This document shows positions 1-51,298 of a DNA stretch of 61,972 nucleotides, in pieces (the first letter of the stretch is position 1; every line of letters starts with the position of its first letter). The notes beneath the pieces are model-generated. The model was not told the origin of the DNA and did not search any database. It was given only the letters and a program-made list of their open reading frames with translations. A program made the translations under genes and the position numbers. Origin of the DNA: an uncultured Eubacteriales bacterium. GTDB taxonomy: Bacteria > Acidobacteriota > Aminicenantia > Aminicenantales > Aminicenantaceae. Where the stretch lies: the NCBI GenBank assembly GCA_964550165.1, contig CAZJYC010000005.1, forward strand, positions 1 to 61,972, read 5' to 3'.

Positions 1-103
1 CGAAGGGCAGCTCGGGAAGGCTAAACCTTCAATGGTCGCTTCGGCCATCTCTGAGGGCCTTTTTGTTACCAAAAACTCCTTCACCCAAACAAAATGGAAG
101 AGA
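1..103. repeat. Right-arm fragment of a MITE-like element, truncated by the window start. Same family as the complete element at 18277-18508.
   Basis: Bases 20-103 (ccttcaatggtcgcttcggccatctctgag...cacccaaacaaaatggaagag) align to 18444-18508 (ccttcaatggtcgcttcggccatctctgag...cacccacacaaaagggaaga). The start of the element lies upstream of the window. Confidence 0.6.
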
Positions 104-296
104 TTCATTTAGAATTTAGTATGGTGTTCTGGTTTTTGCCGCTTTTTTGACAGAACGAACAACCTGTCTGAAGCCGGGAAACTATTCCAAAAATACCAGG
201 AAGAATTTATAATGGCTGTTCGTCTAAATTTTAGTTATATCCAAAACGGATGTCAAAAAATCATATGCATTCAAATTATCATTAAAGGAGGAAAAT

Positions 297-2120
297 GTGA
301 TGAAAAAGTCCGTCCTGTTGATTCTTTTAATTGTCTTTTTGATTTTCAGCGTGAGCGCGCAGACTCCTCAAACCGCTCAGCAGCCAAAACCCGAAGATAT
401 TTTAAAGAACCTGATCCTTGTCGAAAAACCTCAGGCCGTGCCAGAAAAAATGAAAATCGGGTTTGAGTCCATAACTGCTAAAGATTCTTTGGTGATGCTA
501 TCTTATATTGCTTCTGATCTCATGGAGGGCCGGGAGACTGCGACGAGAGGATACGAGCTGGCTTCTGAGTATGCGGCGTCCCTTTTTGCCTTATGGAAGT
601 TGAAACCCGCCGGAGATGCTCCAAGCATGGGCCGCATGATGGCCAGAGGCATGGCCGCCGCGGGACAGCAGGCGCCGCCACGGGAAAAAAGCTATCTCCA
701 GGAATTTGTCATGAAGGAAATCTCAGATGTCTCCAGCCAGATCAACCTGGAAGTCAGGAAGGGCGCTCTCTTGAAGACGCGAAGCTTTAAGTCAGGAGTC
801 GACTTCACCAGCATGCCCTCGACAGCCGGCTCTATTGAAGCCCCCGTAGTTTTTGCCGGCTACGGAATCAAGGAAAAAGAGATTGGCTGGGATGATTTCA
901 AAAATCTCGACGTCAAGGGAAAAATCGTCCTGATCATTTCCGAAGCACCGGGAAAGGACAATCCCAAGTCGCCTTTCCAGAAAAAGGAGTTGAAGGAGAA
1001 ATATTTTCCACCCGCTGCCTTCGGTCCTTTTCGCCGCGGCGGCGGATTTTCCAAGACCCAGGAGATTGCCAAACTTGGTGCCGCAGCCATCCTTCAAGTC
1101 CAGAACTCAACAAAAGACGCCGACATCTACAGAGGGCTTGCCGGGCAAAGGCGAATTTCCGATGAGCGTCCGATAATTCGAAGGCCGCGGCGACGCCTGA
1201 TGATTCCGGGCAGCGGAGCGCCGATGCCCTGGGAGGCTTCGCCGGTCATCACGGTCCCGCGCGAGATGGCCGATGCCATTTTGGAAGCAAGCGGTCAAAA
1301 AATTGAAGGCCTGCAGAAGCGAATCGAGGACACTTTAAAGCCTTTTTCCATGGAATTGCCCGGAACCAAGCTGACAATTTCGACCACGGCCAAGACTGAG
1401 CTGGTCCGCAGCGCCAACGTCCTGGCTTATATCGAAGGCTCCGACCCGGCCTTGAAAAATGAGTTCGTCGTGGTTGGCGGCCATCTCGACCATCTCGGGA
1501 AATGGGAAGACTATATCTTCAACGGCGCCGACGACAACGGCTCTGGCTCGGTCGGCGTCCTGAATCTGGCCAGAGCTTTCATGGCCAGTCCGGAAAAGCC
1601 CAAACGCTCCATTCTCTTCTGCCTCTGGACAGGAGAAGAGCTCGGCCTTCTAGGCTCCCGCTACTATGTCCAGAACCCCGCTTTTCCCCTGGATAAAACT
1701 GTAGCCTATATCAACATGGACATGATCAGCCGGCCCTACGATGAAAGAAGCATCAGCCGCATGTCCCGGATGTTCAACATCCCCAGCACCCAGGAGCTTC
1801 TCAAGAAAATCAAGCCGGAAAATTTCCTGCCCGTCTCGTTCTCGGCCGGAGCAGGCCTGGATGATATCCTGAGAAATGCCGACCAGTTTGTGGGCCTTGA
1901 CCTGTTTTTGCGCGAGGCCGGCGGAGGTCTCGACCGCGGAATGGGAGGCAGCGATCATTCGTCGTTTGCCGCGGCGAAAATTCCCTGGGTGTTTTTCAAT
2001 TCGAGCATGACCGAGGATTATCACCAGACCAGCGATAGCGTGGAGAAGGTCAGCGGCCAGATGATCGAAAACATCTCGCGTCTGGCCTATTTGACGGCAT
2101 TTGCGTTGGCGGATAAATGA
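297..2120 (+). CDS. Secreted M28-family Zn aminopeptidase with a PA domain
   Basis: N-terminal signal peptide (MMKKSVLLILLIVFLIFSVSAQT). M28 metal-binding signature GADDNGSGSVGVLNLARAF. Downstream EEXG-like LWTGEELGLLGS. AAAGGAGG Shine-Dalgarno at 284-291. An ATG at 300 is equally possible as the start. Confidence 0.75.
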   Translation: MMKKSVLLILLIVFLIFSVSAQTPQTAQQPKPEDILKNLILVEKPQAVPEKMKIGFESITAKDSLVMLSYIASDLMEGRETATRGYELASEYAASLFALWKLKPAGDAPSMGRMMARGMAAAGQQAPPREKSYLQEFVMKEISDVSSQINLEVRKGALLKTRSFKSGVDFTSMPSTAGSIEAPVVFAGYGIKEKEIGWDDFKNLDVKGKIVLIISEAPGKDNPKSPFQKKELKEKYFPPAAFGPFRRGGGFSKTQEIAKLGAAAILQVQNSTKDADIYRGLAGQRRISDERPIIRRPRRRLMIPGSGAPMPWEASPVITVPREMADAILEASGQKIEGLQKRIEDTLKPFSMELPGTKLTISTTAKTELVRSANVLAYIEGSDPALKNEFVVVGGHLDHLGKWEDYIFNGADDNGSGSVGVLNLARAFMASPEKPKRSILFCLWTGEELGLLGSRYYVQNPAFPLDKTVAYINMDMISRPYDERSISRMSRMFNIPSTQELLKKIKPENFLPVSFSAGAGLDDILRNADQFVGLDLFLREAGGGLDRGMGGSDHSSFAAAKIPWVFFNSSMTEDYHQTSDSVEKVSGQMIENISRLAYLTAFALADK

Positions 2121-2165
2121 TAATTGATCCGCATCAAAGAGATCGTTTGTGGCTAATGGCAGTCT

Positions 2166-3462
2166 TTATTCGTAGAGCAAATACTTCTTCTGTTTCTCCT
2201 TGAAGAGATTCTCGTCCTTCTCCATCTGCGCCAGCAGCTCGTCGTAACTGATTTTGCCCTTGATATACCGGCTGAGAAGATTGTTGCCGAACATGAAATC
2301 CAGGTAGCGTGATTCTGAAAAAGATTTATCCGGAAACTGCTCCTTGATGATTTTGATGAGTTCAAGCCCGAAACGGATGGAATAGCACTTCTCTTTACTG
2401 ACGATGTTAGCCCGAATTCCGCGGCAATTTTTTTTCTCATAAAGCGGGTGAAGGACCTTTCCCTGAAGAGAATAGGGCGTGAATTCGACAGGCTCGAGTT
2501 CGATGCCGAACCGGGCCCCGCCGTTCATCTTTTCAATGATGGCGGCCGGATCAAACCAGGGGGCGCCGAACTGGAGAAAAGGGAAAAGTGTCCCTTCTCC
2601 TTTATTGAGGCCTAAGGCGCCCAGCAGGGCTGTTCCCGGAAAGATGATGGCGGTCTCGGCCGTCGGGATGTTCGGGGAGGAGGGTGTCCAGCTAAGGCCG
2701 GTGTCTTCCCAGAAGAATCTTCTTTGCCAGTTTTTCATTTTAATCAGTCGAATGTCAGCCATCTCAGGAACCCAGCCTTCTCCCTTCATCATCATCGCCA
2801 GCTCAGCCGCGGTCAACCCGTAGCGGATCGGGATGGGAAAGGCTCCGATAAAAGAGGTGTATTCAGGCCGGAGAAGAGGGCCTTCGATGATCTCGCCGCC
2901 CAGAGGATTGGGCCTGTCCAGGATGTAGACAGGAATACGGGCCTCGGCTGCCGCTTCGATGATGTATTTCAGGGTAGTAATGTAAGTGTAGAACCTGACA
3001 CCCACATCCTGGATATCGTAGACAAAGGCATCAAGATGGATGGTTTGATCGGCTGTCGGCTTTTTTGTCTCTTCGTAAAGACTGTATATTTTGATGCCGT
3101 TGATCTGACTGTCTTCGACCTCAATTCCTCCTTCCACGTCGCCAAAAAATCCATGCTCGGGAGAGAAAATGGCCTGGACCTTTTGTCCTTTTTCCAGGAG
3201 AGCATTAAGGAGCGACTTTCCCTGAGGAAGGAGAGAGGTGTGGTTGATGACAAGTCCCAGCGATTTTCCTTGAACTTCGGAGAGGCATTCTTCTATAAAA
3301 ACCTCATTGCCCAGCACAACCTTTTTTTCGCGCTCAGGAGAAGTTTTTTCCTGATGAAAGCAAAATAGAAAAATTGCGCTTATAAAAAGAAGAAAGACAA
3401 GTCCGACTATGATATTTTTCTTCAAGATCAGGAGCCCTTCATTTTCTCTGCGATGTGACATG
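2166..3462 (-). CDS. DUF1343 / NamZ-family exo-beta-N-acetylmuramidase-like protein, N-terminally membrane anchored
   Basis: Family-typical block LGLVINHTSLLPQGKSLLNALLEKGQKVQAIFSPEHGFFGDVEGG. Start chosen at the ATG at 3462 (MSHRRENEGLLILKKNIIVGLVFLLFISAIFLF), which sits just before the TM segment. The ORF-track start at 3653 would overlap the upstream gene by about 210 nt. Confidence 0.6.
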
Positions 3463-5613
3463 GATGAGATATTCACCCAGCCCTGTTTTTTTGACGATGT
3501 CCAGCGCTTCTTGCTGGGAAAAGGCTTGCTTGAGTCGAAGCGATTCAAGGATGCGAATGATGGACAGGGCGACTTCGGCTGTCTGGCCTGCTTCTCTCTG
3601 TTTATCCTTGAGAAATCCAATCGCCTCAAAGAGCACCGCATTGGCTTCAGCATAGGTAATGGGCTTGTGCTCTCCGTAGAGTTTTATCCATTGAGGCCTG
3701 GCCAGGACATCGTTGGTGTGAGACTGAATGAGGTGTGTCGCCCGGCCGATGAGCTTGAGGTTGCCCGGGCTGACATTGGTCATGGTGTTTCCGATGACTT
3801 TTCCCAGACGGGCCATGACCCCGGTCGAATGCGCGTTGAGAAGAATTTTGAGGGCGATCTGCGCCTTGAGACCCAGCGGGTCGTTTTTCCGGCTGACATT
3901 CACCGCCACAAGAGAATCTTTTGTCGCCGCGTCAAAGCCAGGGATTTTTTGAATAAGCTTAAATACATCTTCTGATGATTTGTCGGTGATGATAATAGCG
4001 GCCACACGGCTTCCTGCTTTCAAGAAGAGGTCGAGGGACCTTCTGAAATCAGAGTTCTTTTTTCGAAGCTGTTCTTCCTCTGGGCTGATACAGACAACGA
4101 CCCCAAGGTCTTCTTTTTCGGGTCCGCGGTTTCTCAGGTTGAACCCGGCAAAGGAGAAATCATAAAGGAACTGCTGGTCATCTCCTGCCTTGTTCAGGCT
4201 TTCCAGGGCGGCTCTTTTCAGGTAGGGGTCTTCGATTTCCTGTTCAAAGGGCTTTTGATAGAAACGACGGCTCAGCCCTCTGAAGGGCCTCCCCAGAAAG
4301 GCCTGCCAGGCGTCCTGGAGGCTGGATGCGGGCGTCAAGACCTGAATCCAGCATTTTCTTCTTTCTTCTTTGACCGTGTCCAGGGGAAAAAGGCGAAAGG
4401 TCGGGCTCCTTTCCGTGCTGTCGATGAAAACGGTGATCAGGCCTTTTTGGGCAAAATAGGTGGAGAAGCGCCCGCTTTTGTAAGTCTCGGCTTCGAGCGC
4501 TGTGAATTTAGATAAGGCCGACAGGCTGGCTTTGACCCCCTTCAGGATGGAAGAGAATTCTTTTAGCTTTTTTTCAAGACGGACCTCCTCCGCAAAACCC
4601 AGTTCTGCCATCTCTTTTTCGCAAAGAAAATTCTTTAGAATGCGTTCGAACGCTTTCCCCAGGATATTGCCGACAATGAAGGTCTCGATGGTCGTGGCCT
4701 GCATCCGCGTTGAGCCGGTTATGGCCTGAGGGCCTGTGAAGAGGTTGATCTTGGTGATTCCTGGCTCTTCAAGGACCTCCCGGCTGCGCTCAAAGGGAAG
4801 GAGCTTTTCGTCGGGGTTGTTGTAGACAAAATAGAGATTCTTTCTGGATTTTGCCGGGTTGTAATCACCGGCTTTTTTCCACTGGTCCAAGGCAGCCAGG
4901 ATTGTGCCGATGACCGACGAGGTCTCGCCTCCTTCAGTGACGCAGATGACAACGTCCCCTTTTTCGATCCCTCGGTCCTCTAGCTGAAGACGTCCGATAA
5001 GCTGAAGGTCTTCGAACCCTTCCAGGGAGCTGATCAGGGCCCGGTCGGCTCCGGTCATTTCTCCGATGAGCCTCTGTTCGATATTCTCTCCAAGCTGATG
5101 TTTGATTTTTGACCAGATCTTTCTTTTTTCCTTGACTCTCCTCCAGAAAGGACGCCAGAAAGTGCTTTCCATCTGTTTGGCCAGGCGGCCGGTAGCGCCG
5201 CAGCCGTATATGTAAATCTTTTTCCCGGAGAGAACAGCTTCTTCCAAAGCTTGAGAAGCCTGCTCAAGAACATCCTTCTCTCCGGCCATAGCTTCGAGCT
5301 TTTCTGCGATGTCCTCATCCACGGAGAAAAGGAGGCGCAGCCCGGTCTCGCAGTCTTGCTGGATTTCCTGGCTGAGGTTCCAGGTTTTGGGGTGGCGCTG
5401 TTCTGTCAGCAGGGTGTGGAGCTGAAATTGAGTCTTGTTCCGGACATAATCCACGGAGTCTGGCGAAGGCGTTATTCTCAAAAGCTGAAGCAGGCTCATC
5501 TCATTTTTTATGGAGACTTTGGTCTTCTGGACCGGATTCGAAAGCAGTTGAAACGCCGGAAAAAACAGAGCCAGGGCAATCAAAGGAAAATACAGAATTC
5601 TACTCGCATTCAT
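3439..5613 (-). CDS. Tandem-SIS-domain protein of the MurQ / GckR (N-acetylmuramic acid-6-P etherase / glucokinase-regulator) family with an N-terminal signal peptide
   Basis: Signal peptide MNASRILYFPLIALALFFPAFQ. First SIS block KIYIYGCGATGRLAKQ ... FTGPQAITGSTRMQATTIETFIVGNILGKAF, compared with MurQ GAGTSGRLG ... [31 protein letters not shown]. Second block LKILLNAHSTGVMARLGKVIGNTMTNVSPGNLKLIGRATHLI, compared with MurQ [26 protein letters not shown]. Confidence 0.6.
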   Translation of the reverse strand: MNASRILYFPLIALALFFPAFQLLSNPVQKTKVSIKNEMSLLQLLRITPSPDSVDYVRNKTQFQLHTLLTEQRHPKTWNLSQEIQQDCETGLRLLFSVDEDIAEKLEAMAGEKDVLEQASQALEEAVLSGKKIYIYGCGATGRLAKQMESTFWRPFWRRVKEKRKIWSKIKHQLGENIEQRLIGEMTGADRALISSLEGFEDLQLIGRLQLEDRGIEKGDVVICVTEGGETSSVIGTILAALDQWKKAGDYNPAKSRKNLYFVYNNPDEKLLPFERSREVLEEPGITKINLFTGPQAITGSTRMQATTIETFIVGNILGKAFERILKNFLCEKEMAELGFAEEVRLEKKLKEFSSILKGVKASLSALSKFTALEAETYKSGRFSTYFAQKGLITVFIDSTERSPTFRLFPLDTVKEERRKCWIQVLTPASSLQDAWQAFLGRPFRGLSRRFYQKPFEQEIEDPYLKRAALESLNKAGDDQQFLYDFSFAGFNLRNRGPEKEDLGVVVCISPEEEQLRKKNSDFRRSLDLFLKAGSRVAAIIITDKSSEDVFKLIQKIPGFDAATKDSLVAVNVSRKNDPLGLKAQIALKILLNAHSTGVMARLGKVIGNTMTNVSPGNLKLIGRATHLIQSHTNDVLARPQWIKLYGEHKPITYAEANAVLFEAIGFLKDKQREAGQTAEVALSIIRILESLRLKQAFSQQEALDIVKKTGLGEYLIHVTSQRK

Positions 5614-5791
5614 TTTTTATAGCCTCTTATTCATTTGCTTGCTTGTCCGAAAAAAGTTCAACTCCTTCAACCGCACAGGATGGAAGAGAACATTTAGGTT
5701 TAAGGAGATCGCCGCGCTTCTTTCGGGAGCTCGCGATGGCATTTTTATCATTGCGTTATTGTGAGATTTTCCGCACGAAAAAAGTGATTCG

Positions 5792-6301
5792 TCAGCCATA
5801 CTGCTGCTCATCGTCGAGAATATCGGCTTTCTGCCATTCCTTGACCCATTCGCCCACCAGGAAAGATCTCATTTTTCCGTCTGCCGTCGAGCAGACCACA
5901 CGGTTGAGGCCGGCGTTGATGATTATCTTCTTGCACATAAAACAGGGAAAGGCGTTAATCGGCTTGAATTTTCCGGTGATGCTGCCGTAGATGTACATGT
6001 CACCTCCCAGCAAGCTGACTCCAGCCCGGGCGGCGTTGATGATCGCGTTTTGCTCGGCATGAACGCTCCGGCAGAGCTCGTAGCGCTGTCCATGAGGGAT
6101 GCCCAGCTTATCGCGGAGGCAGAAGCCGTGCTCGAAGCTGTCTTTGGTTTTCCTGGGCGCTCCGACATATCCGGTGGAGATGATCTGGTCATCCTTGATG
6201 ATGATCGCGCCGATCGAGCGGCGAAAACAGGTGCTGCGCCGTGCCACTTCTTCGGCAATGCCCATGTAATACTGGTCTTTGGAAATTCTTATTGGACTCA
6301 T
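5792..6301 (-). CDS. comEB: dCMP (deoxycytidylate) deaminase, ComEB/Dcd family
   Basis: Zinc-binding motifs HAEQNAI and PCxxC (FPCFMCKK). Size 169 aa. The ATG overlaps the stop of the upstream kinase gene (ATGA). Confidence 0.8.
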   Translation of the reverse strand: MSPIRISKDQYYMGIAEEVARRSTCFRRSIGAIIIKDDQIISTGYVGAPRKTKDSFEHGFCLRDKLGIPHGQRYELCRSVHAEQNAIINAARAGVSLLGGDMYIYGSITGKFKPINAFPCFMCKKIIINAGLNRVVCSTADGKMRSFLVGEWVKEWQKADILDDEQQYG

Positions 6302-6837
6302 GGCAATTCCTCCAGCTTTTTGTGCAAATCTTCGAGGGAGCCGTCGTTGATAATCATAAAATCGGCCATCTTCATACAGCTCTGGAGCTGTTGTCCTTTT
6401 CTGCGCCTTGTCATCTCTTCTCTTTCTTTTTTGATGAATTCCCGAAGAGATGAAGCCGATTCCTCCCTTCCCCTTTTTTTCGCCCTCTCGTATCTTAATT
6501 CGACAGGAGCGTCGACGGAGAGCAAAATGAATTTATTATGTTTTCTCAAGTATTCGACTTCCTTGGGATTGCGGATGCTGTCGATGACAGCTTTGCTTTG
6601 GACTTTTTCCATGACGCGCCTGGCCAAGATATCGGGGCCAAGCTTTTCTCTGAGCTCGTTTCCCATCTGGATCAGGTTGTTTCGGGTTGGCTCCTTGCCT
6701 TTTTTCTGAATCTCTTCACGAATCAGGTCGGAGAGAGAAAAATAGGCGTATCCTCTTTTAACAAAAAAGGCAGCCACCTCTCCCTTTCCCGCGCCGTTCG
6801 TCCCTGTCAGCCCGATCAGTCTCGCTTCTTTTTTCAC
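6298..6837 (-). CDS. Small P-loop nucleotide/nucleoside kinase (dephospho-CoA-kinase / dNMP-kinase-like)
   Basis: N-terminal Walker A LIGLTGTNGAGKGEVA. Size 179 aa. Translationally coupled to the dCMP deaminase gene. Confidence 0.45.
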   Translation of the reverse strand: MKKEARLIGLTGTNGAGKGEVAAFFVKRGYAYFSLSDLIREEIQKKGKEPTRNNLIQMGNELREKLGPDILARRVMEKVQSKAVIDSIRNPKEVEYLRKHNKFILLSVDAPVELRYERAKKRGREESASSLREFIKKEREEMTRRRKGQQLQSCMKMADFMIINDGSLEDLHKKLEELP

Positions 6838-6844
6838 AACAAAC

Positions 6845-8128
6845 CTACAACCTTCCTCTCAACAGTCTTTTGCACCAGGAAAGAAAGAGAAAAAAATAGG
6901 CATCGAGGATGAGGTCAAACCTGAAGAGGGGATTGACGATGCCAGCCTTTAAAAATAGCCAGAGGACAAAGTCTTTATGCTTCGGGGGACAGCCTTTGAT
7001 TTTTCTTCGTTTCCTGGCCTTCACTTCGCCCTGAATTTGCGAGCAGTTGCCGATAACCATCAACCTGTCGGCTTCAACATTTCCGTTATGCTTGCCGATG
7101 ACAACAGTCCAGGGAGGAAGGCTCTTCCAGAGCGCTGGTTTTCTGTCCTTAATCATGTAGAGCCAGTCTAAGAAAACGCCATGACAGCCGCCCTCGCAGT
7201 AGGGTTTGCCGGCGATTGTCTGGATATTGCAGTCCGCCTCGTCCACCCTGGCCAGGCCGAGGTCCCAGTCTCTTGTTTTTTGCCGGATTTCCTCGAGAGA
7301 TATATCGCCCAGGAGCTCAATCTCTTCGAGGCGGAGCGGCCCGTAGCCCCTTTCATGGGCGATGCGGAGGTGCTGGATTTTTTGCGGGTCAAGATGGAGG
7401 ATATGGGCGCAAACAACGTCATGAGCCAGAGGATTCTTGGCCATGACAACGATCCCCAGATGCTTGCCGTGCTGCGTGAGATGATTTCCCCCAAGCGAAA
7501 TCTCGATACAATCAGTGGCGATGAAATCCGGATAGCCGACCTCGAGCAAATCGACGATTTTCTCGTCCAGGTTGTAATTGTGGTTCCACATTCTTTCTCT
7601 ATCTTTGAGGATTCCTACGTTGAGCTTAATCGCCGCTGTCAGCCCCTGGGTAAGATTATTGCTTTTGAGTTTCGGGGCGTAGACGAGAAAGTCGTTTTCG
7701 ACAATTTCTCTGGCTGTGGTGATTTGGGTATGGATTTTTCCTTTCTTAAGGGCCACCCTGACCTTCTTCGCCTCTTCTATGGGAAGTAGCTTGACCTTAT
7801 ATTGTTTTTTCAGCTTCTGGTAGCCGGCTCTCCTGAACATCCTGGAGGTCGGCATCCCAGCTCCACATTTTTCAGCGATTGTGATTTTTAGCTCATCGCT
7901 TTTTCCGTCTATCATGGCCAGGAGTAAGCCTTCGAGGAATTCCGGCCGGGTGTAAGCCGAAGGGGCAACTTGATGATGGGCCATGACCACATTGGGCTTG
8001 ATGGTCACGCGGCCCTGAACAGATGAAGCTAGACCGAGTTCATCGAGGCCTTCCTGGATGACTTTTTTGATTGTCTCCGGACTGTAATCTGGAACCCTGC
8101 GGATTATGACTTTCTCTTTTTCCTTCAT
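6845..8128 (-). CDS. DUF362-family protein
   Basis: N-terminal VTIKPNVVMAHHQV block typical of DUF362. Cys-rich C-terminal part (CEGGCHG). Confidence 0.4.
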   Translation of the reverse strand: MKEKEKVIIRRVPDYSPETIKKVIQEGLDELGLASSVQGRVTIKPNVVMAHHQVAPSAYTRPEFLEGLLLAMIDGKSDELKITIAEKCGAGMPTSRMFRRAGYQKLKKQYKVKLLPIEEAKKVRVALKKGKIHTQITTAREIVENDFLVYAPKLKSNNLTQGLTAAIKLNVGILKDRERMWNHNYNLDEKIVDLLEVGYPDFIATDCIEISLGGNHLTQHGKHLGIVVMAKNPLAHDVVCAHILHLDPQKIQHLRIAHERGYGPLRLEEIELLGDISLEEIRQKTRDWDLGLARVDEADCNIQTIAGKPYCEGGCHGVFLDWLYMIKDRKPALWKSLPPWTVVIGKHNGNVEADRLMVIGNCSQIQGEVKARKRRKIKGCPPKHKDFVLWLFLKAGIVNPLFRFDLILDAYFFLFLSWCKRLLRGRL

Positions 8129-8133
8129 GCTGC

Positions 8134-8868
8134 TTAGCCAGCTAGCTCATCATCAGATTCTTTCCTCTTTTTTTTGCCAAAGATGAGGGCAATCAAGATG
8201 CCCAGGCCGTAAAGGGCGAGCATAGGAACAGCGATGATAGTCTGATTCATCACATCCGGGCTGGGTGTAATCACTGCGGCGATGATGAAAATGGCAAGGA
8301 AAGCATATTTGAAATTTCTTATCATCCATCCTGACGTGACGATTCCCATGCGCGCAAGGAAGAAGATGAGAGTCGGCATTTCAAAAACCAAGGCTATTCC
8401 TAAGAGAAGCCGAATGGCCAGGCTAAAATATTGATCCACTGTAATAACAGCTTTAAATTTGCTTCCCATTTTAAGGAAGAAATTGCAGGCAAAGGGAAAA
8501 GCGACAAAGTAGCCGAAGAGGGCGCCGAGGATAAAAAAGACCGTTGTGAAGAAAACAAAGGGGATGACGTATTTTTTTTCTCTTTGGTAGAGACCGGGAG
8601 CGATGAACAGCCAGAATTGGAAGAAGATGATTGGTGAAGAGATGAAAATAGCGGCCAGGAAAGAGACTTTGATGTAGACCATGAAAGGGGCGGTTAAGGT
8701 CGTGTAAGCTAATTGGTCTCCCCCGGGAAGATATTGGGTGAGGGGACGAGCCAGGATGTCATAGATTTCGTCATGGAACATCCAGGCTGGGATAACCGTC
8801 ACGATAAGGGCGATGAAGGAGTACCAGATTCTTCTTCTGAGTTCATCCAGGTGTTCAAGGAAAGTCAT
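8134..8868 (-). CDS. tatC: Twin-arginine translocase subunit TatC
   Basis: MTFLEHLDELRRRIWYSFIALIV... six-TM TatC signature. The ATG at 8868 abuts the tatA stop (8873-8875). The Lys-rich 5' extension of the ORF track (to 9033) overlaps tatA and was not used. Confidence 0.8.
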   Translation of the reverse strand: MTFLEHLDELRRRIWYSFIALIVTVIPAWMFHDEIYDILARPLTQYLPGGDQLAYTTLTAPFMVYIKVSFLAAIFISSPIIFFQFWLFIAPGLYQREKKYVIPFVFFTTVFFILGALFGYFVAFPFACNFFLKMGSKFKAVITVDQYFSLAIRLLLGIALVFEMPTLIFFLARMGIVTSGWMIRNFKYAFLAIFIIAAVITPSPDVMNQTIIAVPMLALYGLGILIALIFGKKKRKESDDELAG

Positions 8869-8872
8869 CCCA

Positions 8873-9118
8873 TCAGCTGACTTTTTTTTCTTTCCCGCCA
8901 TCTTCGATATCTTTCTTGATTTCTTCCTGAAGATCCTTGAGCTCTTCGGCTTGAATCTCTTCCTCGATTTTTTCTTTGATCTCATCCGAGGTTTTTCTGA
9001 ATTCTCGGATCGCTCTTCCGATCGACCGTCCAACTTCTGGGAGCTTCTTGGGGCCGAAGATGAGCAGGGCTATGGCTAAAATGATGAGGAGTTCAGGGAG
9101 TCCAATGTTTCCGAACAT
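8873..9118 (-). CDS. tatA: Twin-arginine translocase subunit TatA/E
   Basis: [42 protein letters not shown]. Start taken at the internal Met (MFGN...), which sets the boundary at 9118. Confidence 0.8.
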
Positions 9119-9189
9119 TTTAGCCAATCCGGGATGCAATTCAAAATATAGCCATTCATCTGGGATTAGTCAACTGGAACTTTCCAAGA

Positions 9190-18851: not shown

Positions 18852-20576
18852 ATGGCCTCCAATCTTGGTGAACTTCTCTTAAGGGAAAAGCTTATTAATA
18901 CGGAGCAGCTGAGGAATGCCCTTGATTTTGAGAAGAAGAATAAGGTTCCCGTGGCTTCTGCTTTCGTTTCCCTTGGCTATATCTCGGAAGAGGAAATGGC
19001 CCAGGCTTTGAGTCGTCAGCTGGGCTACCCCTACATTGACCTCAGCCAATTCGAAATCTTCCCTGATGTCATCGAGCTCATCCCGGTGGATATTGCCAAG
19101 AAACATATGATCATGCCCATTCACCGCATCCGGTCTTTTCTCACCATGGCCATGGTCGACCCCACAGACCTCGACATCATCGAGAATGTCCGGTTCCGGA
19201 CGAACTTGAGCATCCAGCCTGTGATTGCTTCTGAGTCGGGGATTATGGATGCCGTCAATAAATATTACGGCACCAGCGATTCGCTCCGCGTTAAGGAAAT
19301 TATCGATGAAATCGAGCAGTCTGAAGATTCAACGATCAACGTCATCGAAGATGAGGATGAAGACTACAGCATTGAGGAATTGGTTCACTCCACCGAGGAA
19401 GCACCCATCATCACCCTTGTCAACACCATATTCTTGGATGCCATAAAGAAAGGCGCCTCCGATATCCATTTTGAGCCCTACGAAAAATCCTTCCGGGTAA
19501 GATACCGAATAGACGGAATTCTCCATGAAATGATGGATCTCGCCTTGAAATTCAAGAATCCGATGGTCTCCCGCGTGAAGATTCTATCAAACATGGATAT
19601 TGCCGAGAAAAGGCTGCCTCAAGACGGCCGACTCAAGGTGAGAGTTAGATGGGGAGAAAACAACCGTAAGGAAGTCGATATGCGCGTTTCCGCCGTGCCG
19701 ACGATATATGGAGAGAAAGTTGTCTCCCGTATTCTTGACCGGGAGATGTTGAAGCTAGACCTCACGAAATTGGGATTTGAAGTCGAGTCGCTTGACATTG
19801 TTAAAAAGGCGATTACCAGACCCTGGGGAATTATCCTTGTGACCGGACCGACAGGAAGCGGAAAGACCAACACTCTGTACTCAGCCATTTCCTCTCTGAA
19901 CTCCCAGGAAAAGAACATCATGACCGCGGAAGATCCCGTCGAGTTTAACATTCCTGGAGTCAACCAGGTCAACATCAAAGAAGAGATTGGCTTAACGTTT
20001 TCGTCATCTCTTAGGTCTTTCTTGCGGCAGGACCCGGATATCATGCTCGTCGGCGAGATGCGCGATTATGAGACTGTCGACATCGCCATCAAAGCGGCCC
20101 TAACCGGACACCTTGTTTTCTCCACCGTTCACACCAACGATGCTGCGGGCACCATCGTCAGGCTGATTAACATGAATGTCGAACCATTTCTGATCGCGGA
20201 TTCCCTCGTTCTGATTGTAGCCCAAAGGCTGGTCAGGCGTCTGTGCAAAAAGTGTAATGAAGAGCATAAGTTCTCGCCTGAAGCGCTTGTCGATATCGGC
20301 TTTTCTCCGGAGGACGCGAAAGAGATCAAAGTGTATAAACCCAAGGGTTGTGCGGCCTGCAGTGACACGGGCTACAAGGGAAGAGTCGGGCTGTTTGAAG
20401 TCCTGCAGATAACCGATGAAGTGAGAGACCTCATCTTAAGCAGGGCTCAACCAAGAGAAATAAAGAAGAAAGCCATGGAACAGGGCATGCTCACACTGCG
20501 GCGGAGCGGCTTGATCAAGATAAAAGAAGGCGTCACTTCTGTCGAAGAAGTCTTAAGAGAAACCGTTAGGGATTAG
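18852..20576 (+). CDS. pilB: Type IV pilus assembly ATPase PilB (GspE family)
   Basis: N-terminal GSPII_E_N-like domain. Walker A GPTGSGKTNTLYSAIS. C-terminal tetracysteine CKKCNEEH...CAACSDTGYKGRVGLFEV. Confidence 0.9.
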   Translation: MASNLGELLLREKLINTEQLRNALDFEKKNKVPVASAFVSLGYISEEEMAQALSRQLGYPYIDLSQFEIFPDVIELIPVDIAKKHMIMPIHRIRSFLTMAMVDPTDLDIIENVRFRTNLSIQPVIASESGIMDAVNKYYGTSDSLRVKEIIDEIEQSEDSTINVIEDEDEDYSIEELVHSTEEAPIITLVNTIFLDAIKKGASDIHFEPYEKSFRVRYRIDGILHEMMDLALKFKNPMVSRVKILSNMDIAEKRLPQDGRLKVRVRWGENNRKEVDMRVSAVPTIYGEKVVSRILDREMLKLDLTKLGFEVESLDIVKKAITRPWGIILVTGPTGSGKTNTLYSAISSLNSQEKNIMTAEDPVEFNIPGVNQVNIKEEIGLTFSSSLRSFLRQDPDIMLVGEMRDYETVDIAIKAALTGHLVFSTVHTNDAAGTIVRLINMNVEPFLIADSLVLIVAQRLVRRLCKKCNEEHKFSPEALVDIGFSPEDAKEIKVYKPKGCAACSDTGYKGRVGLFEVLQITDEVRDLILSRAQPREIKKKAMEQGMLTLRRSGLIKIKEGVTSVEEVLRETVRD

Positions 20577-20586
20577 AGGGAGAAAA

Positions 20587-21702
20587 ATGAAGTTATCGAT
20601 GCAAGAATTGCTTAAAACGACGGTGGATAGGGATGCCAGTGACCTCCATATCACCACCCACACTCCCCCTCGAATAAGAGTCCATGGAAGTATCATTTCT
20701 CTCGACTATCCCCATCTCACAGCGGCCGACACCAAGGAGCTTATCTACACCCTCTTGACGGACAGGCAGAAGAAGCTGTTCGAGGAGAAACTGGAGCTGG
20801 ATTTCTCCTTTGGCATCAAGGATGTAGGCCGCTTCAGGGCCAATGTCTACATGCAGAAAGGCTCCGTGGCCGGGGCGTTTCGGAGGTTGATGCCCCATAT
20901 CTGGAACTTTTCTCAGCTGGGAATTCCGACAAAGATTACCCAACTCTGTCATATACCGAGGGGATTAGTCGTGATCACAGGGCCAACGGGCTGCGGGAAA
21001 TCAACAACCCTTGCCTGTATGGTCAACTACATCAACAGCGAAAGATCCGTCCACATCATCACCATCGAAGACCCTATCGAATATTTTTTCAGTCCAAAAA
21101 AGTCCATCATCAATCAGAGGGAGCTCAATGTCGATACCCTGTCCTACCCCAACGCCCTGCGCTCCGTCTTGAGAGAAGACCCGGACGTTGTTCTTGTTGG
21201 AGAAATGAGGGATTTGGCCACAATGGAAGCCACTTTGCGTGTCGCAGAGACAGGCCACCTGACATTCTCGACACTTCACACAAACTCAGCGGCTGAAACA
21301 ATTTCCAGAATTGTCGATATCTTCCCGCCTCAGCATCAGGCTCAAACGCGGGTCACCCTTTCCATGTGTTTAGAGGCCGTGCTCACCCAAGCCCTTCTGC
21401 CTCGTGCGGACGGGAGGGGGAGGGTTTTGGCCATGGAGATACTCATCCCTAATTCTGCCATAAGAAATCTCATCCGAGAGAACAAAATCCACCAGATATA
21501 CTCCGCCATGCAGATGGGCCAGGAGAAATTTGGGATGCAAACCTTTAACCAATCTCTGGCCGCCCTCTACTATAAAGGATTGATAACCCTTGAGACGGCT
21601 ATGAACGTCTCTTATAAGGCAGATGAATTGACGGAAATCATTCAGAAGAAAGAGGGATTTAAAGCGGCCGTTGCGGGCTCCTCTTCTGAAAGAGGAAGAT
21701 AA
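20587..21702 (+). CDS. pilT: Twitching-motility retraction ATPase PilT
   Basis: MQELLKTTVDRDASDLHITTHTPPRIRVHG. GPTGCGKSTT Walker A. 371 aa. Confidence 0.9.
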   Translation: MKLSMQELLKTTVDRDASDLHITTHTPPRIRVHGSIISLDYPHLTAADTKELIYTLLTDRQKKLFEEKLELDFSFGIKDVGRFRANVYMQKGSVAGAFRRLMPHIWNFSQLGIPTKITQLCHIPRGLVVITGPTGCGKSTTLACMVNYINSERSVHIITIEDPIEYFFSPKKSIINQRELNVDTLSYPNALRSVLREDPDVVLVGEMRDLATMEATLRVAETGHLTFSTLHTNSAAETISRIVDIFPPQHQAQTRVTLSMCLEAVLTQALLPRADGRGRVLAMEILIPNSAIRNLIRENKIHQIYSAMQMGQEKFGMQTFNQSLAALYYKGLITLETAMNVSYKADELTEIIQKKEGFKAAVAGSSSERGR

Positions 21703-21718
21703 TGAAAAGGGGGAGATA

Positions 21719-22921
21719 ATGGCTGTCTTTGTTTGGGAAGGCAAGAATCGTTTTGGTGAACCTGTCAGAGGAGAGCGCGTTGCCAGGTCTGTGGATGAGC
21801 TCTCAAGAGTTCTGGCGAGAGAACAGATCAGCGTCGGTAATATTTCAAGAAAAACGGCTGAGTTCAAGATTCCCTTTCTGAAGAGAGAAAGAGTTTCTCT
21901 CAAGGAGCTGGCAGTCTACAGCCGGCAGCTCTCCGTGTTGATTGACGCGGATCTTCCTTTGATCCAGAGTTTAAACATGCTGGCTGAGCAAACGAGGAAC
22001 AAATACTTCAAGAATGTCATTCAAAATATTAGAAAGGATGTCGAAGGGGGCTCCACGCTCAATCAGGCCAAAAAGAAATACCCGAAAGTTTTCGACGACC
22101 TGTACTCTAATCTTGTGGCTTCAGGTGAGCAGAGCGGTTCGCTCGATGTCATGTTGCGGCGTCTATCCGAGTATTTGGAGAAAATCGTCAAGTTGCGGGC
22201 TCAGGTCAAGCAGGCGATGACTTATCCGACAGCTGTGTTTGCCTTTTCTGTCGTGGTGACGATTTTCATGATGTGGAAAGTCGTGCCGATCTTTTCCAAT
22301 ATTTTTCTCGAACTCGGAGCCAGTTTGCCTATCTTGACCAGGGTGGTGTTGGGCATCAGCGATTTTGTCCAGAGATATGTGATTGCTGTCTTCATCGGCC
22401 TGATCGGTTTTATTTTTCTTTTCAGGTATTTCAAGCAAACACCGACGGGGAGGATGAGTATAGATACTTTCGTGATGAAGATACCTCTTTTCGGAAAATT
22501 GATCGAGAAAGTCGCCCTGTCTCGAATCACCCGAACCCTGGCCACGCTTCTCACGGGTGGAGTGCCAATGCTGGAGAGCTTGAAAATCACGTCCTCGACA
22601 TCAGGAAATATCGTTATTGAAAATCATATCCTTGAAGCGCGAAGCCGGGTGGCAGGCGGAGCGAGCCTTATGGATGCTCTGAGAGAAAGAGCCCGTTTTC
22701 CCTATATGCTGTGCCAAATGGTGGGCGTGGGGGAAGCCACAGGAAAGCTTGACACGATGCTGACCAAGCTGGCTGATTTTTACGACGATGAGGTGGAGAG
22801 CGCAGTCGGCTCCCTTCTTTCTGTCTTGGAGCCGATTCTTCTGATCGTTGTCGGAGGAATGATCGGAGCGATCGTTATCTCCATGTACCTCCCGGTCTTC
22901 AACTTGATGCAGCAGTTTTAA
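21719..22921 (+). CDS. pilC: Type IV pilus inner-membrane platform protein PilC (GspF family)
   Basis: Two GspF repeats. Start taken at the ATG at 21719, preceded by AAAGGGGGAG. The upstream Met in the ORF track overlaps pilT. Confidence 0.85.
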   Translation: MAVFVWEGKNRFGEPVRGERVARSVDELSRVLAREQISVGNISRKTAEFKIPFLKRERVSLKELAVYSRQLSVLIDADLPLIQSLNMLAEQTRNKYFKNVIQNIRKDVEGGSTLNQAKKKYPKVFDDLYSNLVASGEQSGSLDVMLRRLSEYLEKIVKLRAQVKQAMTYPTAVFAFSVVVTIFMMWKVVPIFSNIFLELGASLPILTRVVLGISDFVQRYVIAVFIGLIGFIFLFRYFKQTPTGRMSIDTFVMKIPLFGKLIEKVALSRITRTLATLLTGGVPMLESLKITSSTSGNIVIENHILEARSRVAGGASLMDALRERARFPYMLCQMVGVGEATGKLDTMLTKLADFYDDEVESAVGSLLSVLEPILLIVVGGMIGAIVISMYLPVFNLMQQF

Positions 22922-22993
22922 AGAAGAATTAGATAAGAAAGAAAAATTAATCTCCACCTGCAAGCGAATAAGGATGTCAATAGATACCTGGAA

Positions 22994-24289
22994 ATGAAAG
23001 AAATTCAGGAAGTTGAAAAGATAACCAGAAAAAAAAAAGACATCTTAAGACTCATCCTTATTCGCCTGATCATTGTCACCTCTCTTCTCATCTCAGCGGT
23101 TATCATTCAGTCCAGTACTTCGATTTTTCTCCCGCTTAATCCTTTCTACTTCCTGATTCTCACTATCTATTTTCTCTCGTTCGTCTATCTTCTTCTCTAT
23201 ATCTCAGGCAAGTTTTATACCGCCCAGGTCTGCCTTCAGATTTTCTTCGACCTCCTTTTGATCACAACACTCGTTTATCTTTCAGGAGGGTTGCAAGGGT
23301 CTTTTTACTTCCTTTACATATTCGAAATTATCGCGGCGAGCATCGTTCTCTCCAAGCGTGCGGCCTACCTGACAGCTGCCCTTTCTGGCATATTTTTCGG
23401 TATCCTTGTCAATCTGATGTATTTTGAAATCATTCCCTATTTAGGTCCCGAAGAAAGCATGGAAATATCCCTTGGCCTTGTCATCAACAATATTTTTGTA
23501 GCCTCGAGTGCCTTTTTTCTCGTGGCCTTTTTGATGAATATCCTGACCGGAAGTTTGCAGAAGACCAGGGACGAGCTGCGCCGGGCGCAAAAGGAGCTTG
23601 AGATCAAAACGCGTCTGGCTGTTGCCGGAGAGGTCTCAGCCCAGCTTGCGCATGAAATCCGAAATCCCCTGGCAGCCATCTCCGGCTCAGTCCAGGTTTT
23701 GAAAGATGAGTTGGGATTGAGCGGAGAGCAGCGGGACCTGATGAACATCATCATCGAAGAATCCAAGAGAATTTCACAATCCATCGAACAGTTCCTGAAT
23801 CTTGCGTCTCCTGTCCAGAGAACCTTCTCCTCCATCGATCTTTCAGCGATTCTGAAGGAAGCCCTCGTGCTTCTTCAGAGAAGTGGAGAGGTGAACGGGA
23901 ATGTGAATGTGGAAGGGAACTTCAAGGTTATAAGCGTTCCTTATTTCGGAAACAGCAATCAGTTTAAGCAGCTCTTCTGGAATCTGGTCAAAAATTCTCT
24001 CAAAGCTATGCCCGCGGGCGGAACATTGACCATAGACTTTGCCAAGATCAAAAAGGACAAACTCCGGTTGAGAATTGCTGACACAGGAGTGGGTATGTCC
24101 AAAGAGGAAAAAGAAAGGTTATTCGAGCCGTTTTTTTCAGGGTTCGAGAACGGAAGAGGAATCGGCATGGGCGTTATCCGCCGCATCGTTGCCGACTATC
24201 GAGGAGAAATCGATGTTCTCTCTGAGTCCAATAAAGGGACAGAGGTTATCATAACTCTCCCTCTGGGGTCAAAAGGTCATCGTTTATAA
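22994..24289 (+). CDS. Membrane sensor histidine kinase (PilS-like)
   Basis: About six N-terminal TM helices. H-box HEIRNPLAAISGSVQVL. HATPase_c with G-boxes (DTGVGM, GRGIGMGV). Confidence 0.8.
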   Translation: MKEIQEVEKITRKKKDILRLILIRLIIVTSLLISAVIIQSSTSIFLPLNPFYFLILTIYFLSFVYLLLYISGKFYTAQVCLQIFFDLLLITTLVYLSGGLQGSFYFLYIFEIIAASIVLSKRAAYLTAALSGIFFGILVNLMYFEIIPYLGPEESMEISLGLVINNIFVASSAFFLVAFLMNILTGSLQKTRDELRRAQKELEIKTRLAVAGEVSAQLAHEIRNPLAAISGSVQVLKDELGLSGEQRDLMNIIIEESKRISQSIEQFLNLASPVQRTFSSIDLSAILKEALVLLQRSGEVNGNVNVEGNFKVISVPYFGNSNQFKQLFWNLVKNSLKAMPAGGTLTIDFAKIKKDKLRLRIADTGVGMSKEEKERLFEPFFSGFENGRGIGMGVIRRIVADYRGEIDVLSESNKGTEVIITLPLGSKGHRL

Positions 24290-24317
24290 TACGCATCGAT
24301 AAAAAGGAGAGTTCAAC

Positions 24318-50700: not shown

Positions 50701-51298
50701 TATTCCCCCAGGCCACGAGAATGATAATCCGCTCGCGATTCATGTCGATTCCAACAAGTCAATAACAGCCAACTTTTTCCAACAGAACAAATTGACCTTA
50801 GTTGCAAAGAGCGGTGGCACAACTGATCCATCGCCTGGAAATTATTCATACGACCCTGGAACGCAAGTGATAATAAAAGCCATAGCAAACAGTGGTTATC
50901 AATTTAGCGGATGGAGCGGTGATGCAAGCGGAACAACTAACCCGATAACAATAACCATGGATTCAGACAAATCCATAACAGCCAACTTCAAAGCGACGGA
51001 CGGCGGCGATGATGGCGGAGGTAAGGGAGGCGGTTGCTTCATCGCCACAGCCGCTTATGGCTCTGCGCTTCATCCGCATGTGAATGTTCTTCGCGAGTTC
51101 AGGGATCGTTATCTTATGACCAACGCCTTGGGCCGCAAGCTGGTTAACATTTATTATAAATATTCTCCATTTCTGGCTGACGTCGTTTCCAGACACAAGA
51201 CATTGAAGGCTGCAATTCGGATTAGCCTTTTGCCTCTCGTTATTTTCAGTTACACGACGGTTCGTTTTGGGCCGATAATCCTCGCTATGCTTGTCTGA
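47714..51298 (+). CDS. Giant modular surface protein: SBBP-type beta-propeller repeats, InlB-type B-repeat domains, a clostripain/C11-like core (apparently Cys-less), an unknown domain, two more B-repeats, and a CFxxTAAYGS C-terminal anchor-like tail
   Basis: Signal peptide. Three ~45-aa repeats ...[28 protein letters not shown]...IEWQRLYGG. Repeated GGST.P.PG.Y.Y..G..V...A.P..GY.F.GWSGD units. [14 protein letters not shown] and [10 protein letters not shown] (C11 hallmarks), but IGFDAALMG where C11 has FDAC. C-terminal [30 protein letters not shown] followed by a hydrophobic tail. Confidence 0.7.

Follow-up and report, generated by a model that had tools for sequence, protein, structure and literature searches.

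Can the D-lactyl ether of N-acetylmuramic acid (MurNAc) be removed outside the cytoplasm? The question is raised by a locus in a 61,972-nucleotide stretch of DNA (the window, positions 1 to 61,972 of contig CAZJYC010000005.1, GenBank assembly GCA_964550165.1) from an uncultured bacterium of the Aminicenantes. It encodes a 724-residue protein with two SIS domains, homologous to the MurNAc-6-phosphate (MurNAc-6-P) etherase MurQ and to the glucokinase regulatory protein GKRP (GCKR), that begins with an export-type N-terminus and is followed by a NamZ-type exo-beta-N-acetylmuramidase. MurQ-family and SIS-domain proteins are regarded as strictly cytoplasmic phosphosugar enzymes. The reading that we put forward here, with confidence at about the even mark, is that the tandem-SIS protein works in the periplasm as a lactyl-ether lyase of the MurQ type, its substrate being MurNAc released by NamZ, possibly without a 6-phosphate.

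Architecture and active site of the tandem-SIS protein

An AlphaFold2 (AF2) model of the 724-residue protein, built from an alignment of 79 diverse homologues, reached a predicted local distance difference test score (pLDDT) of 94.2 and a predicted template modelling score (pTM) of 0.92, with disorder confined to residues 1–35. When this model was compared with the PDB using Foldseek, the top matches were full-length GKRP structures (3W0L, 4BB9, 4LY9 and 4LC9; E of about 1e-17, template modelling score of about 0.7 over about 700 columns), with single-domain MurQ aligning with part of the model only and the two-SIS isomerase domains of GlmS ranking after. The predicted structure thereby confirms the MurQ/GKRP-type tandem-SIS layout that had been proposed in a first-pass annotation made from the sequence alone, namely the three-domain order of SIS-1, SIS-2 and lid that is also found in GKRP and in the GKRP-like etherases of Naegleria gruberi.

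With MurQ, as known from Escherichia coli, Haemophilus influenzae (1NRI, 4LZJ) and Yersinia enterocolitica (4S12), the protein shares homologous SIS and lid regions, the family profile matching MurQ at E = 5e-42 via SIS-1 and the C-terminal lid and GKRP at 1.5e-22. Common to both are the P-loop, the EGxED glutamate, the GSTRM loop, the lid motif N-x-K-L-x-x-R and a DASECPPTF-type motif. MurQ is, however, a homodimer of subunits of about 300 residues, whereas the window protein is a fused pseudo-dimer with the catalytic glutamate motifs divided over SIS-1 and SIS-2 and with a helical hairpin added in SIS-1. Pfam gave weak SIS_2 and GKRP_SIS_N matches, the latter (PF22645) at 26.0 bits for the window protein, below the gathering cut-off of 27 that more distant family members exceed with 30–48 bits. 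The scores with the NCBIfam MurQ models TIGR00274, NF003915 and NF009222 were 99.7, 84.4 and 78 bits, below all of the respective cut-offs of 168, 255 and 302, and the MurQ-model match was broken into three stretches of the protein.

The shortfall against the curated MurQ threshold (99.7 versus 168 bits) is one argument for another reading, in which the protein would belong to the MurQ/SIS superfamily but act, as a lyase or an isomerase, on something else: another amino sugar that is 3-O-substituted or 6-anionic, or MurNAc at the reducing end of oligosaccharides; a candidate for the former is 6-sulfated or 6-phosphodiester-derived MurNAc or N-acetylglucosamine (GlcNAc), with foreign cell walls as the source. 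The family also has invariant residues of its own that are absent from MurQ (E149, W153/R154, E227, E230 and R402), and these, like the added helical hairpin, point in the same direction. We return to this reading with the distribution of the family, where most of the remaining evidence on it lies.

The conserved motifs of the protein are distributed unevenly over its two SIS domains. SIS-1 holds the P-loop GCGATGR (137–143), EGFED with E201, TEGGETSS (226–233) and GSTRM (300–304), E201 falling in HMMER alignments at the position of MurQ E114 and GKRP E153; the helical hairpin is inserted where MurQ has its E83 loop, and SIS-1 contains no E83 counterpart. SIS-2 has lost the P-loop and kept the motif FIDSTERSPTFR, containing D398-S-T-E401-R-S-P-T-F406, and its DSTERSPTF stood in register with DASECPPTF of Yersinia MurQ when a SIS-2 profile was aligned with hmmsearch filters off (10 bits, alone not significant). 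In the SIS-2 sequence of GKRP, which was checked as IMDGVECIHTFG, E348 and H351 of the GKRP motif MDGVECIHTF fall at the positions of E401 and P404. Searched alone against the PDB, the SIS-2 profile gave no MurQ or GKRP match.

The catalytic glutamates of E. coli MurQ were reportedly assigned by Hadi et al. (2008) to E83 and E114, and both have counterparts here in composite form only, E114 in E201 and E83 in E401. As SIS-1 contributes the P-loop together with an E114-type glutamate, and SIS-2 a glutamate of the E83 type, the protein would form a single active site with a GKRP-like division of labour, and its sequence indicates that one composite MurQ-type site is intact, comprising the P-loop and E201 of SIS-1, E401 of SIS-2 and N618/K620/R624 of the lid. 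Looked for in both SIS halves, as the first-pass annotation had suggested, the MurQ catalytic glutamates were thus both found to be kept, in one composite site and not as one site per half. GKRP has degenerated in the same way, with the P-loop in SIS-1 only and the E83-type motif in SIS-2 only, and the GKRP residues contacting fructose phosphates (PMC4109836, Fig. 1B) match those of the window protein one to one, except that GKRP H351 is a proline here, as in MurQ (Table 1). Among 79 diverse members, each of these equivalents is either invariant or conserved to 90% or more, alike in signal-bearing and signal-less groups, and D398, E401 and R402 are near-invariant in the family.

Table 1. GKRP residues contacting fructose phosphates and their equivalents in the tandem-SIS protein
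GKRP residues	Equivalent residues	Motif	Domain
T109/S110	A140/T141	within GCGATGR	SIS-1
E153	E201	within EGFED (MurQ E114 position)	SIS-1
S179–S183	T226–E230	within TEGGETSS, canonical SIS "SGET"-type loop	SIS-1
G256/S258/R259	G300/T302/R303		SIS-1
E348/H351	E401/P404		SIS-2
N512/K514/R518	N618/K620/R624		lid

We also considered E227 and E230 as an argument against a phosphate ligand and rejected it, because glutamates of the SGET type are canonical in phosphosugar-binding SIS domains, for example in GlmS. The likeness to vertebrate GKRP amounts to 13–17% identity. The window protein is bacterial, is without the regulatory N-terminal extension of GKRP and has a predicted signal peptide instead; and GKRP, a eukaryotic nucleo-cytoplasmic protein, binds and inhibits glucokinase, whereas no glucokinase partner is encoded in the neighbourhood of the tandem-SIS gene.

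The conservation of this site bears on the preference of the first-pass annotation for a binding or regulatory protein over an etherase. The protein would then be a non-catalytic periplasmic binder or sensor of a sugar or sugar acid, with MurNAc or a muropeptide-derived compound as its ligand, that passes what it has bound on to a transporter, ties NamZ to its substrate or signals. Vertebrate GKRP is a pure ligand-binding regulator with E153 and E348 kept, MurNAc-6-P is not expected in the periplasm, and the repeated fusions to glycosidases described below (NamZ, GH2, DUF4838) form a pattern also seen with carbohydrate-binding modules. A few divergent signal-bearing members without E201, E401 or R303 fit such a role as well. 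What speaks against it is that the active-site residues are strongly constrained in the window protein and in nearly all of its relatives, in the same manner as in cytoplasmic members of catabolic clusters, that an enzyme-like fold of about 690 residues, 75% identical, is large for a binding module, and that the genes beside the exported forms include no conserved transporter, histidine kinase or other partner. With ligand-site residues near-invariant and alike in exported and cytoplasmic relatives, this preference is not favoured, and we consider a pure binder unlikely.

As for the divergent members themselves, two or three of those with signal peptides have E201 replaced by D or Q, E401 by G or C, or R303 by G or A. 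In these cases the exported clade may have given rise to pseudo-enzymes or to binding proteins.

Predicted export and the NamZ partner

The N-terminus of the tandem-SIS protein, MNASR-ILYFPLIALALFFPAF, has MNASR followed by a 16-residue hydrophobic core and then QLLSNPVQ, which gives it a positive n-region and a hydrophobic h-region (Hmax12 of 2.54). Export was judged by a hydrophobicity heuristic together with comparative evidence; the heuristic flags 11 of the 41 ORFs (open reading frames) of the window as signal-peptide-like, known envelope proteins among them, and is therefore of low specificity. A signal-peptide-like N-terminus was found in 117 of 120 close homologues (67–100% identity). 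Residues 1–28 had a pairwise identity of 0.32, the mature part one of 0.75, and the hydrophobicity was retained in 18 of 18 cases; an N-terminus that varies in sequence and stays hydrophobic is typical of signal peptides. The Shine–Dalgarno site ahead of the ATG at 5613 speaks for translation starting there, with the hydrophobic segment included; Met39 was tried as the true start and rejected, being without a Shine–Dalgarno site and not conserved. Many relatives show clear cleavage motifs (VSA↓QE, HAA↓QE), at least 90% of them have a glutamine after the hydrophobic core, and in a homologue from Pendulispora (Myxococcota; P0124) a low-complexity linker comes after the lipobox LPVVAC.

A glutamine right after the core or putative cleavage site is also frequent among other predicted signals of this genome, being found in the products of 297-2120(+), 47714-51298(+) and 57306-58214(-) as well as at Q29 of the tandem-SIS protein (examples are SVSA↓QT, LNA↓QW and LFG↓QQ, the consensus in the tandem-SIS family being x↓QE). 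It resembles the "Q-rule" for Bacteroidetes given in the TfNamZ preprint, the host here belonging to the Acidobacteriota-related Aminicenantes.

Cysteine contents varied with the predicted compartment. Mature domains held 0.45 cysteines per 100 residues in signal-bearing members versus 1.36 in signal-less members among 50%-identity cluster representatives (p = 4e-7), and 0.56 versus 0.85 in the close subfamily counted over species-level genomes (p = 1.7e-5), both comparisons being uncorrected for phylogeny, and a near-invariant P-loop cysteine was replaced in 5 of 8 signal-bearing versus 2 of 57 signal-less members. The export-type N-terminus noted in the first-pass annotation has thus been borne out by its recurrence among the homologues, by its divergence relative to the mature part and by the Shine–Dalgarno site at the upstream ATG, and export of the tandem-SIS protein is a well-supported prediction.

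The ORF next to the tandem-SIS gene matched NamZ_N at 3e-72 (242.7 bits, cut-off 26.9) and NamZ_C at 2e-29 (103.8 bits, cut-off 25). Gene calls on identical metagenomic contigs place its start at TTG 3425, 13 nucleotides past the stop of the tandem-SIS gene, giving a product of 419 residues; an alternative ATG at 3461 would overlap the tandem-SIS gene, and the 495-residue maximal ORF 2166-3653(-) is not the likely product. The short gap and the shared minus strand show that the two genes are tightly coupled, and they are probably co-transcribed. The N-terminus of this NamZ, KKNIIVGLVFLLFISAIFLFCF, has KK followed by a 19-residue hydrophobic segment; it passes the same low-specificity heuristic and is predicted to be a membrane or signal anchor, paralleling the N-terminal export signals of the NamZ enzymes of Bacillus subtilis (BsNamZ) and Tannerella forsythia (TfNamZ).

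How far this pairing is conserved was surveyed at 80 species-level genome loci, counting genes less than 300 nucleotides apart as adjacent. NamZ was adjacent to the tandem-SIS gene at 17 of the 80 loci, in several lineages, with one more case within 2 kb and one in-frame fusion, its position being either downstream or upstream with the strand shared, or convergent. The fusion (L037) has a linker as in a 1,147-residue protein (P0041) from a cluster of eight member sequences, and the fused form carries a single N-terminal signal and no internal transmembrane segment, the anchor of NamZ itself being lost. The predicted compartments of the two proteins agreed in 15 of 16 pairs: in all 13 cases of a signal-peptide-bearing tandem-SIS gene with NamZ adjacent or nearby, NamZ had its own signal or anchor, at two loci (L081 and L083) both proteins were signal-less, and the sole mismatch was a signal-less SIS protein beside a signal-bearing NamZ (L082). 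At one locus (L051), NamZ was followed by a signal-bearing GH3 protein of the NagZ type and then by a tandem-SIS gene with a lipoprotein-like signal. NamZ was the only recurrent neighbour that is functionally informative, and apart from it no conserved transporter, histidine kinase or other partner was found beside the exported forms at the 80 loci.

Conserved adjacency, in-frame fusion and co-varying signal peptides support the view, already taken in the first-pass annotation, that the tandem-SIS protein is functionally tied to a membrane-anchored NamZ in an extracytoplasmic peptidoglycan-sugar module. The NamZ (GH171) proteins of B. subtilis and T. forsythia (TfNamZ1-3) are exported exo-beta-N-acetylmuramidases that free MurNAc, which in these systems is imported by MurP or MurT, phosphorylated and then cleaved by a cytoplasmic single-domain MurQ. 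The partnership seen here is thus of the kind present in the B. subtilis murQRP-amiE-nagZ-namZ operon. Unlike in B. subtilis and T. forsythia, however, the MurQ-family partner is itself signal-bearing and forms, in some relatives, one polypeptide with NamZ; and whereas MurQ uses a phosphosugar generated in the cytoplasm by a phosphotransferase system or a kinase, the window protein has a predicted N-terminal export signal.

These data also bear on whether the protein could be an ordinary cytoplasmic MurNAc-6-P etherase in GKRP-like format, its N-terminus being a start-codon artefact, a cytoplasm-facing tether or a minor isoform. The phosphate-site residues are intact, signal-less close relatives occur in Planctomycetota, Bacteroidales and other Acidobacteriota, the mismatched pair at L082 is arranged as in B. 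subtilis, and the gene is surrounded by housekeeping genes. Yet the extension is open and hydrophobic in nearly all of the close homologues, its positive n-region predicting an N-in/C-out orientation, the translation signals favour the upstream ATG over Met39, and lipobox and AXA-type sites appear in other lineages. The cysteine depletion of the exported members, the NamZ fusion with its one N-terminal signal and the co-variation of SIS and NamZ signals speak against this explanation as well, and we hold it to be quite improbable.

Relatives, substrate and proposed mechanism

An exhaustive search returned 1,394 related clusters at 50% identity, 385 of them at E<1e-30 and most with lengths of 560–740 residues, and close relatives are encoded in at least 583 species-representative genomes. 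The nearest named relatives of the window protein, at 67–75% identity, all come from Candidatus Aminicenantes metagenome-assembled genomes (MAGs). The closer subfamily mixes signal-bearing and signal-less members and is found in Aminicenantes, other Acidobacteriota, Planctomycetota, Myxococcota, Bacteroidales, Chlamydiae, Deferribacterales and a Legionella MAG, and a distant subfamily of about 600 residues, abundant for example in Pirellulales, is almost always signal-less. MAG titles such as "uncultured Eubacteriales" and "Hadarchaeota" look like placeholders and were not relied on.

The first-pass annotation had suggested a survey of the surroundings for MurNAc kinase or transporter genes, and genes for a ROK-type sugar kinase and for SSS and MFS transporters were seen near signal-less relatives, no transporter being conserved beside the exported forms. 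At the two loci with signal-less SIS and NamZ proteins (L081 and L083), the cluster also contains a ROK sugar kinase, a D-lactate-dehydrogenase-type oxidase linked to flavin adenine dinucleotide and a beta-lactamase-family (AmiE-like) protein. At five loci of signal-less members an SSS transporter follows, in Planctomycetota a NagB-like gene follows, and MFS transporters and GH3 NagZ are also among the neighbours of cytoplasmic relatives. The clusters at L081 and L083 are wholly signal-less and apparently cytoplasmic and occur in MAGs with a Hadarchaeota label, for which a placeholder name or a transfer of the cluster may be the explanation.

Further fusions join the tandem-SIS module to GH2 domains (P0214), to a signal-bearing DUF4838/GH67N-like glycosidase-type region (P0222), to a GlcNAc 2-epimerase domain (P0185), to a GNAT acetyltransferase (P0193) and, in a signal-bearing protein, to an unannotated N-terminal region of 350 residues (P0154). 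The fusion partners act on unphosphorylated sugars and link the module to unphosphorylated amino-sugar chemistry.

The variety of these partners (GH2, DUF4838, GlcNAc 2-epimerase, GNAT), the abundance of the remote subfamily in Pirellulales and the fact that most loci are without NamZ add to the case for a MurQ/SIS-superfamily enzyme with another substrate. That case is countered by NamZ, whose only known product is MurNAc, being the single informative recurrent neighbour, across lineages and as a fusion, and by the cytoplasmic clusters with D-lactate-dehydrogenase-type oxidase and NagB-like genes, as would be expected downstream of an etherase. Taking both sides together, we regard a different substrate as rather unlikely.

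As NamZ and its MurQ-family partner share a predicted compartment and sometimes one polypeptide, a two-step periplasmic relay is the simplest mechanism. Periplasmic NamZ would act on glycan strands free of peptides and release the MurNAc at their non-reducing ends, whereupon the tandem-SIS protein would take off the D-lactyl ether of the open-chain sugar by MurQ-type beta-elimination and rehydration. GlcNAc, or a derivative of it, and D-lactate would then be formed outside the cytoplasm, most probably without prior ATP-dependent phosphorylation at position 6. The periplasm is without ATP, which suggests an activity that does not need the 6-phosphate. What the analysis shows is the architecture, the conserved residues, the adjacency and in-frame fusion of the genes, the pattern of signal peptides and the co-varying localisation; the export itself, the catalysis and the substrate with its phosphorylation state are inferred.

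Several observations weigh against such a periplasmic lyase. The 6-phosphate anion-binding residues of MurQ and GKRP are fully conserved in the tandem-SIS protein, and a conserved anion site implies a phosphorylated or otherwise anionic ligand, although MurNAc-6-P is not expected in the periplasm; it is mainly because this site conflicts with a phosphate-free activity that our confidence is kept at an even level. Catalysis is also not a necessary consequence of the conserved residues. The GKRPs of the protist N. gruberi, the lancelet and the frog are active MurNAc-6-P etherases, whereas rat GKRP is essentially inactive with both glutamates retained, so that conservation is compatible with catalysis and not proof of it. 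The equivalence of E401 with E83 depends on a short in-register motif and on fold topology, SIS-2 alone having no significant sequence match. The c-region of the window protein, QLLSNPVQ, is without a clear AXA site, so that the protein may carry an uncleaved anchor, and the cysteine comparisons ignore phylogeny. A Planctomycetota homologue with 54% identity has no signal peptide, which makes the localisation lineage-specific and the chemistry presumably one that was set in the cytoplasm. NamZ, finally, is not at the locus in about three-quarters of the genomes.

More tentatively, and with more doubt than for the window protein itself, the exported tandem-SIS proteins as a group could be kinase-independent extracytoplasmic lyases that turn unphosphorylated MurNAc freed by NamZ, or the reducing-end MurNAc of glycan fragments, into GlcNAc and D-lactate in the periplasm and so bypass MurP or MurT/MurK. 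As a corollary, the GKRP architecture would have originated and diversified in bacteria, with its more than 1,300 sequence clusters, before it passed to eukaryotes.

The remaining locus and the biological meaning

The three ORFs named in the first-pass annotation were all present in the ORF list at the coordinates given for them, and the features of the locus are compiled in Table 2.

Table 2. Coordinates of the tandem-SIS gene, its domains and its neighbours in the window
Feature	Position	Strand	Basis
Tandem-SIS gene, 724 residues, exported-type GKRP-architecture MurQ homologue	3439..5613	-	ORF list, AF2, Foldseek, profiles
Shine–Dalgarno-like AAGAGG, 9-nucleotide spacer to ATG at 5613	5623..5628	-	sequence reading
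Predicted signal peptide or signal anchor, residues 1–29 of the tandem-SIS protein (MNASR, hydrophobic core, conserved Gln29)	5527..5613	-	Hmax12, homologue comparison, low pLDDT of residues 1–35
SIS-1, residues ~60–330	4624..5436	-	MurQ and GKRP alignments, GKRP ligand-site list (PMC4109836), conservation
SIS-2, residues ~335–580	3874..4611	-	local profile alignment, GKRP numbering, alternating beta/alpha secondary structure in the model
C-terminal helical lid, residues 582–724	3442..3870	-	alignments, ligand-site residue list, conservation
NamZ/GH171 exo-beta-N-acetylmuramidase homologue, 419 residues from TTG 3425, predicted N-terminal membrane anchor	2166..3425	-	Pfam, gene calls on identical contigs, junction sequence
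M28 aminopeptidase homologue, 607 residues, predicted secreted	297..2120	+	Pfam, PDB relatives

The peptidase gene, which had been counted as an M28/PA member of the same cluster, fared differently from NamZ. Its product has the M28 domain (Peptidase_M28, 1.7e-38, 132.7 bits, cut-off 21.3) and a classical signal peptide, as had been claimed, but a PA domain was not found by Pfam at E<=0.01, only the general length and layout resembling those of PA-bearing M28 enzymes. Membership in the module was rejected: the gene is convergent to NamZ and outside its operon, and it is adjacent to the pair in the genome of the window only, at none of 80 other species-level loci. The M28 peptidase is a bystander.

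Upstream of the tandem-SIS gene, the Aminicenantes have a conserved housekeeping block that runs from tatA, tatC and DUF362, at times by way of an aldehyde dehydrogenase, to an AAA-type kinase-like gene and a dCMP (deoxycytidine monophosphate) deaminase, and no functional link of this block to the tandem-SIS protein is evident. In the window it corresponds to 5792-9139(-), it recurs at L004, L005 and many other loci, and its kinase-like gene encodes a 179-residue AAA_17/18 protein. Loci without NamZ often carry downstream genes for a KamA-type radical-SAM (S-adenosylmethionine) aminomutase, a D-Ala-D-Ala-ligase-like ATP-grasp protein, a GNAT protein and a V-type ATPase. A search for peptidoglycan-recycling genes at 9.5–25.7 kb of the window found housekeeping and type IV pilus genes only, the latter belonging to a type IV pilus/type II secretion-like cluster at 18852-25685(+) with two T2SSE ATPases, a T2SSF platform protein, a PilS-like histidine kinase and a sigma-54 response regulator. 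A promoter and terminator scan of positions 1–6400 gave counts not above those in shuffled sequence, and these neither support nor oppose the operon boundaries.

In the searchable literature no earlier account was found of exported MurQ/SIS proteins, of a periplasmic etherase or of bacterial proteins with GKRP architecture. Of what is described here, the GKRP architecture and the partnership of NamZ with MurQ are known themes; what would come as a surprise is the compartment predicted, the fusion, and a chemistry that by implication is independent of phosphate or periplasmic. In current accounts, GKRP came about when a murQ gene of bacterial origin was duplicated and fused in eukaryotes. The GKRP architecture, including the asymmetry with which motifs were lost, is spread widely among bacteria and not confined to eukaryotes; the SIS duplication and fusion may predate eukaryotic GKRP, and the bacterial spread of this "eukaryotic" architecture bears on published models of GKRP origin.

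The existence of a conserved exported clade whose members occur beside NamZ or fused to it implies that MurNAc may lose its lactyl ether outside the cytoplasm, and the tandem-SIS protein is a candidate for a new enzyme specificity. If this is true, the chemistry would proceed without the 6-phosphate handle, or an unrecognised periplasmic source of MurNAc-6-P would exist. Models of peptidoglycan (necromass) recycling would then change for sediment bacteria such as the Aminicenantes, and lineages of this type might do without a MurNAc transporter or kinase.

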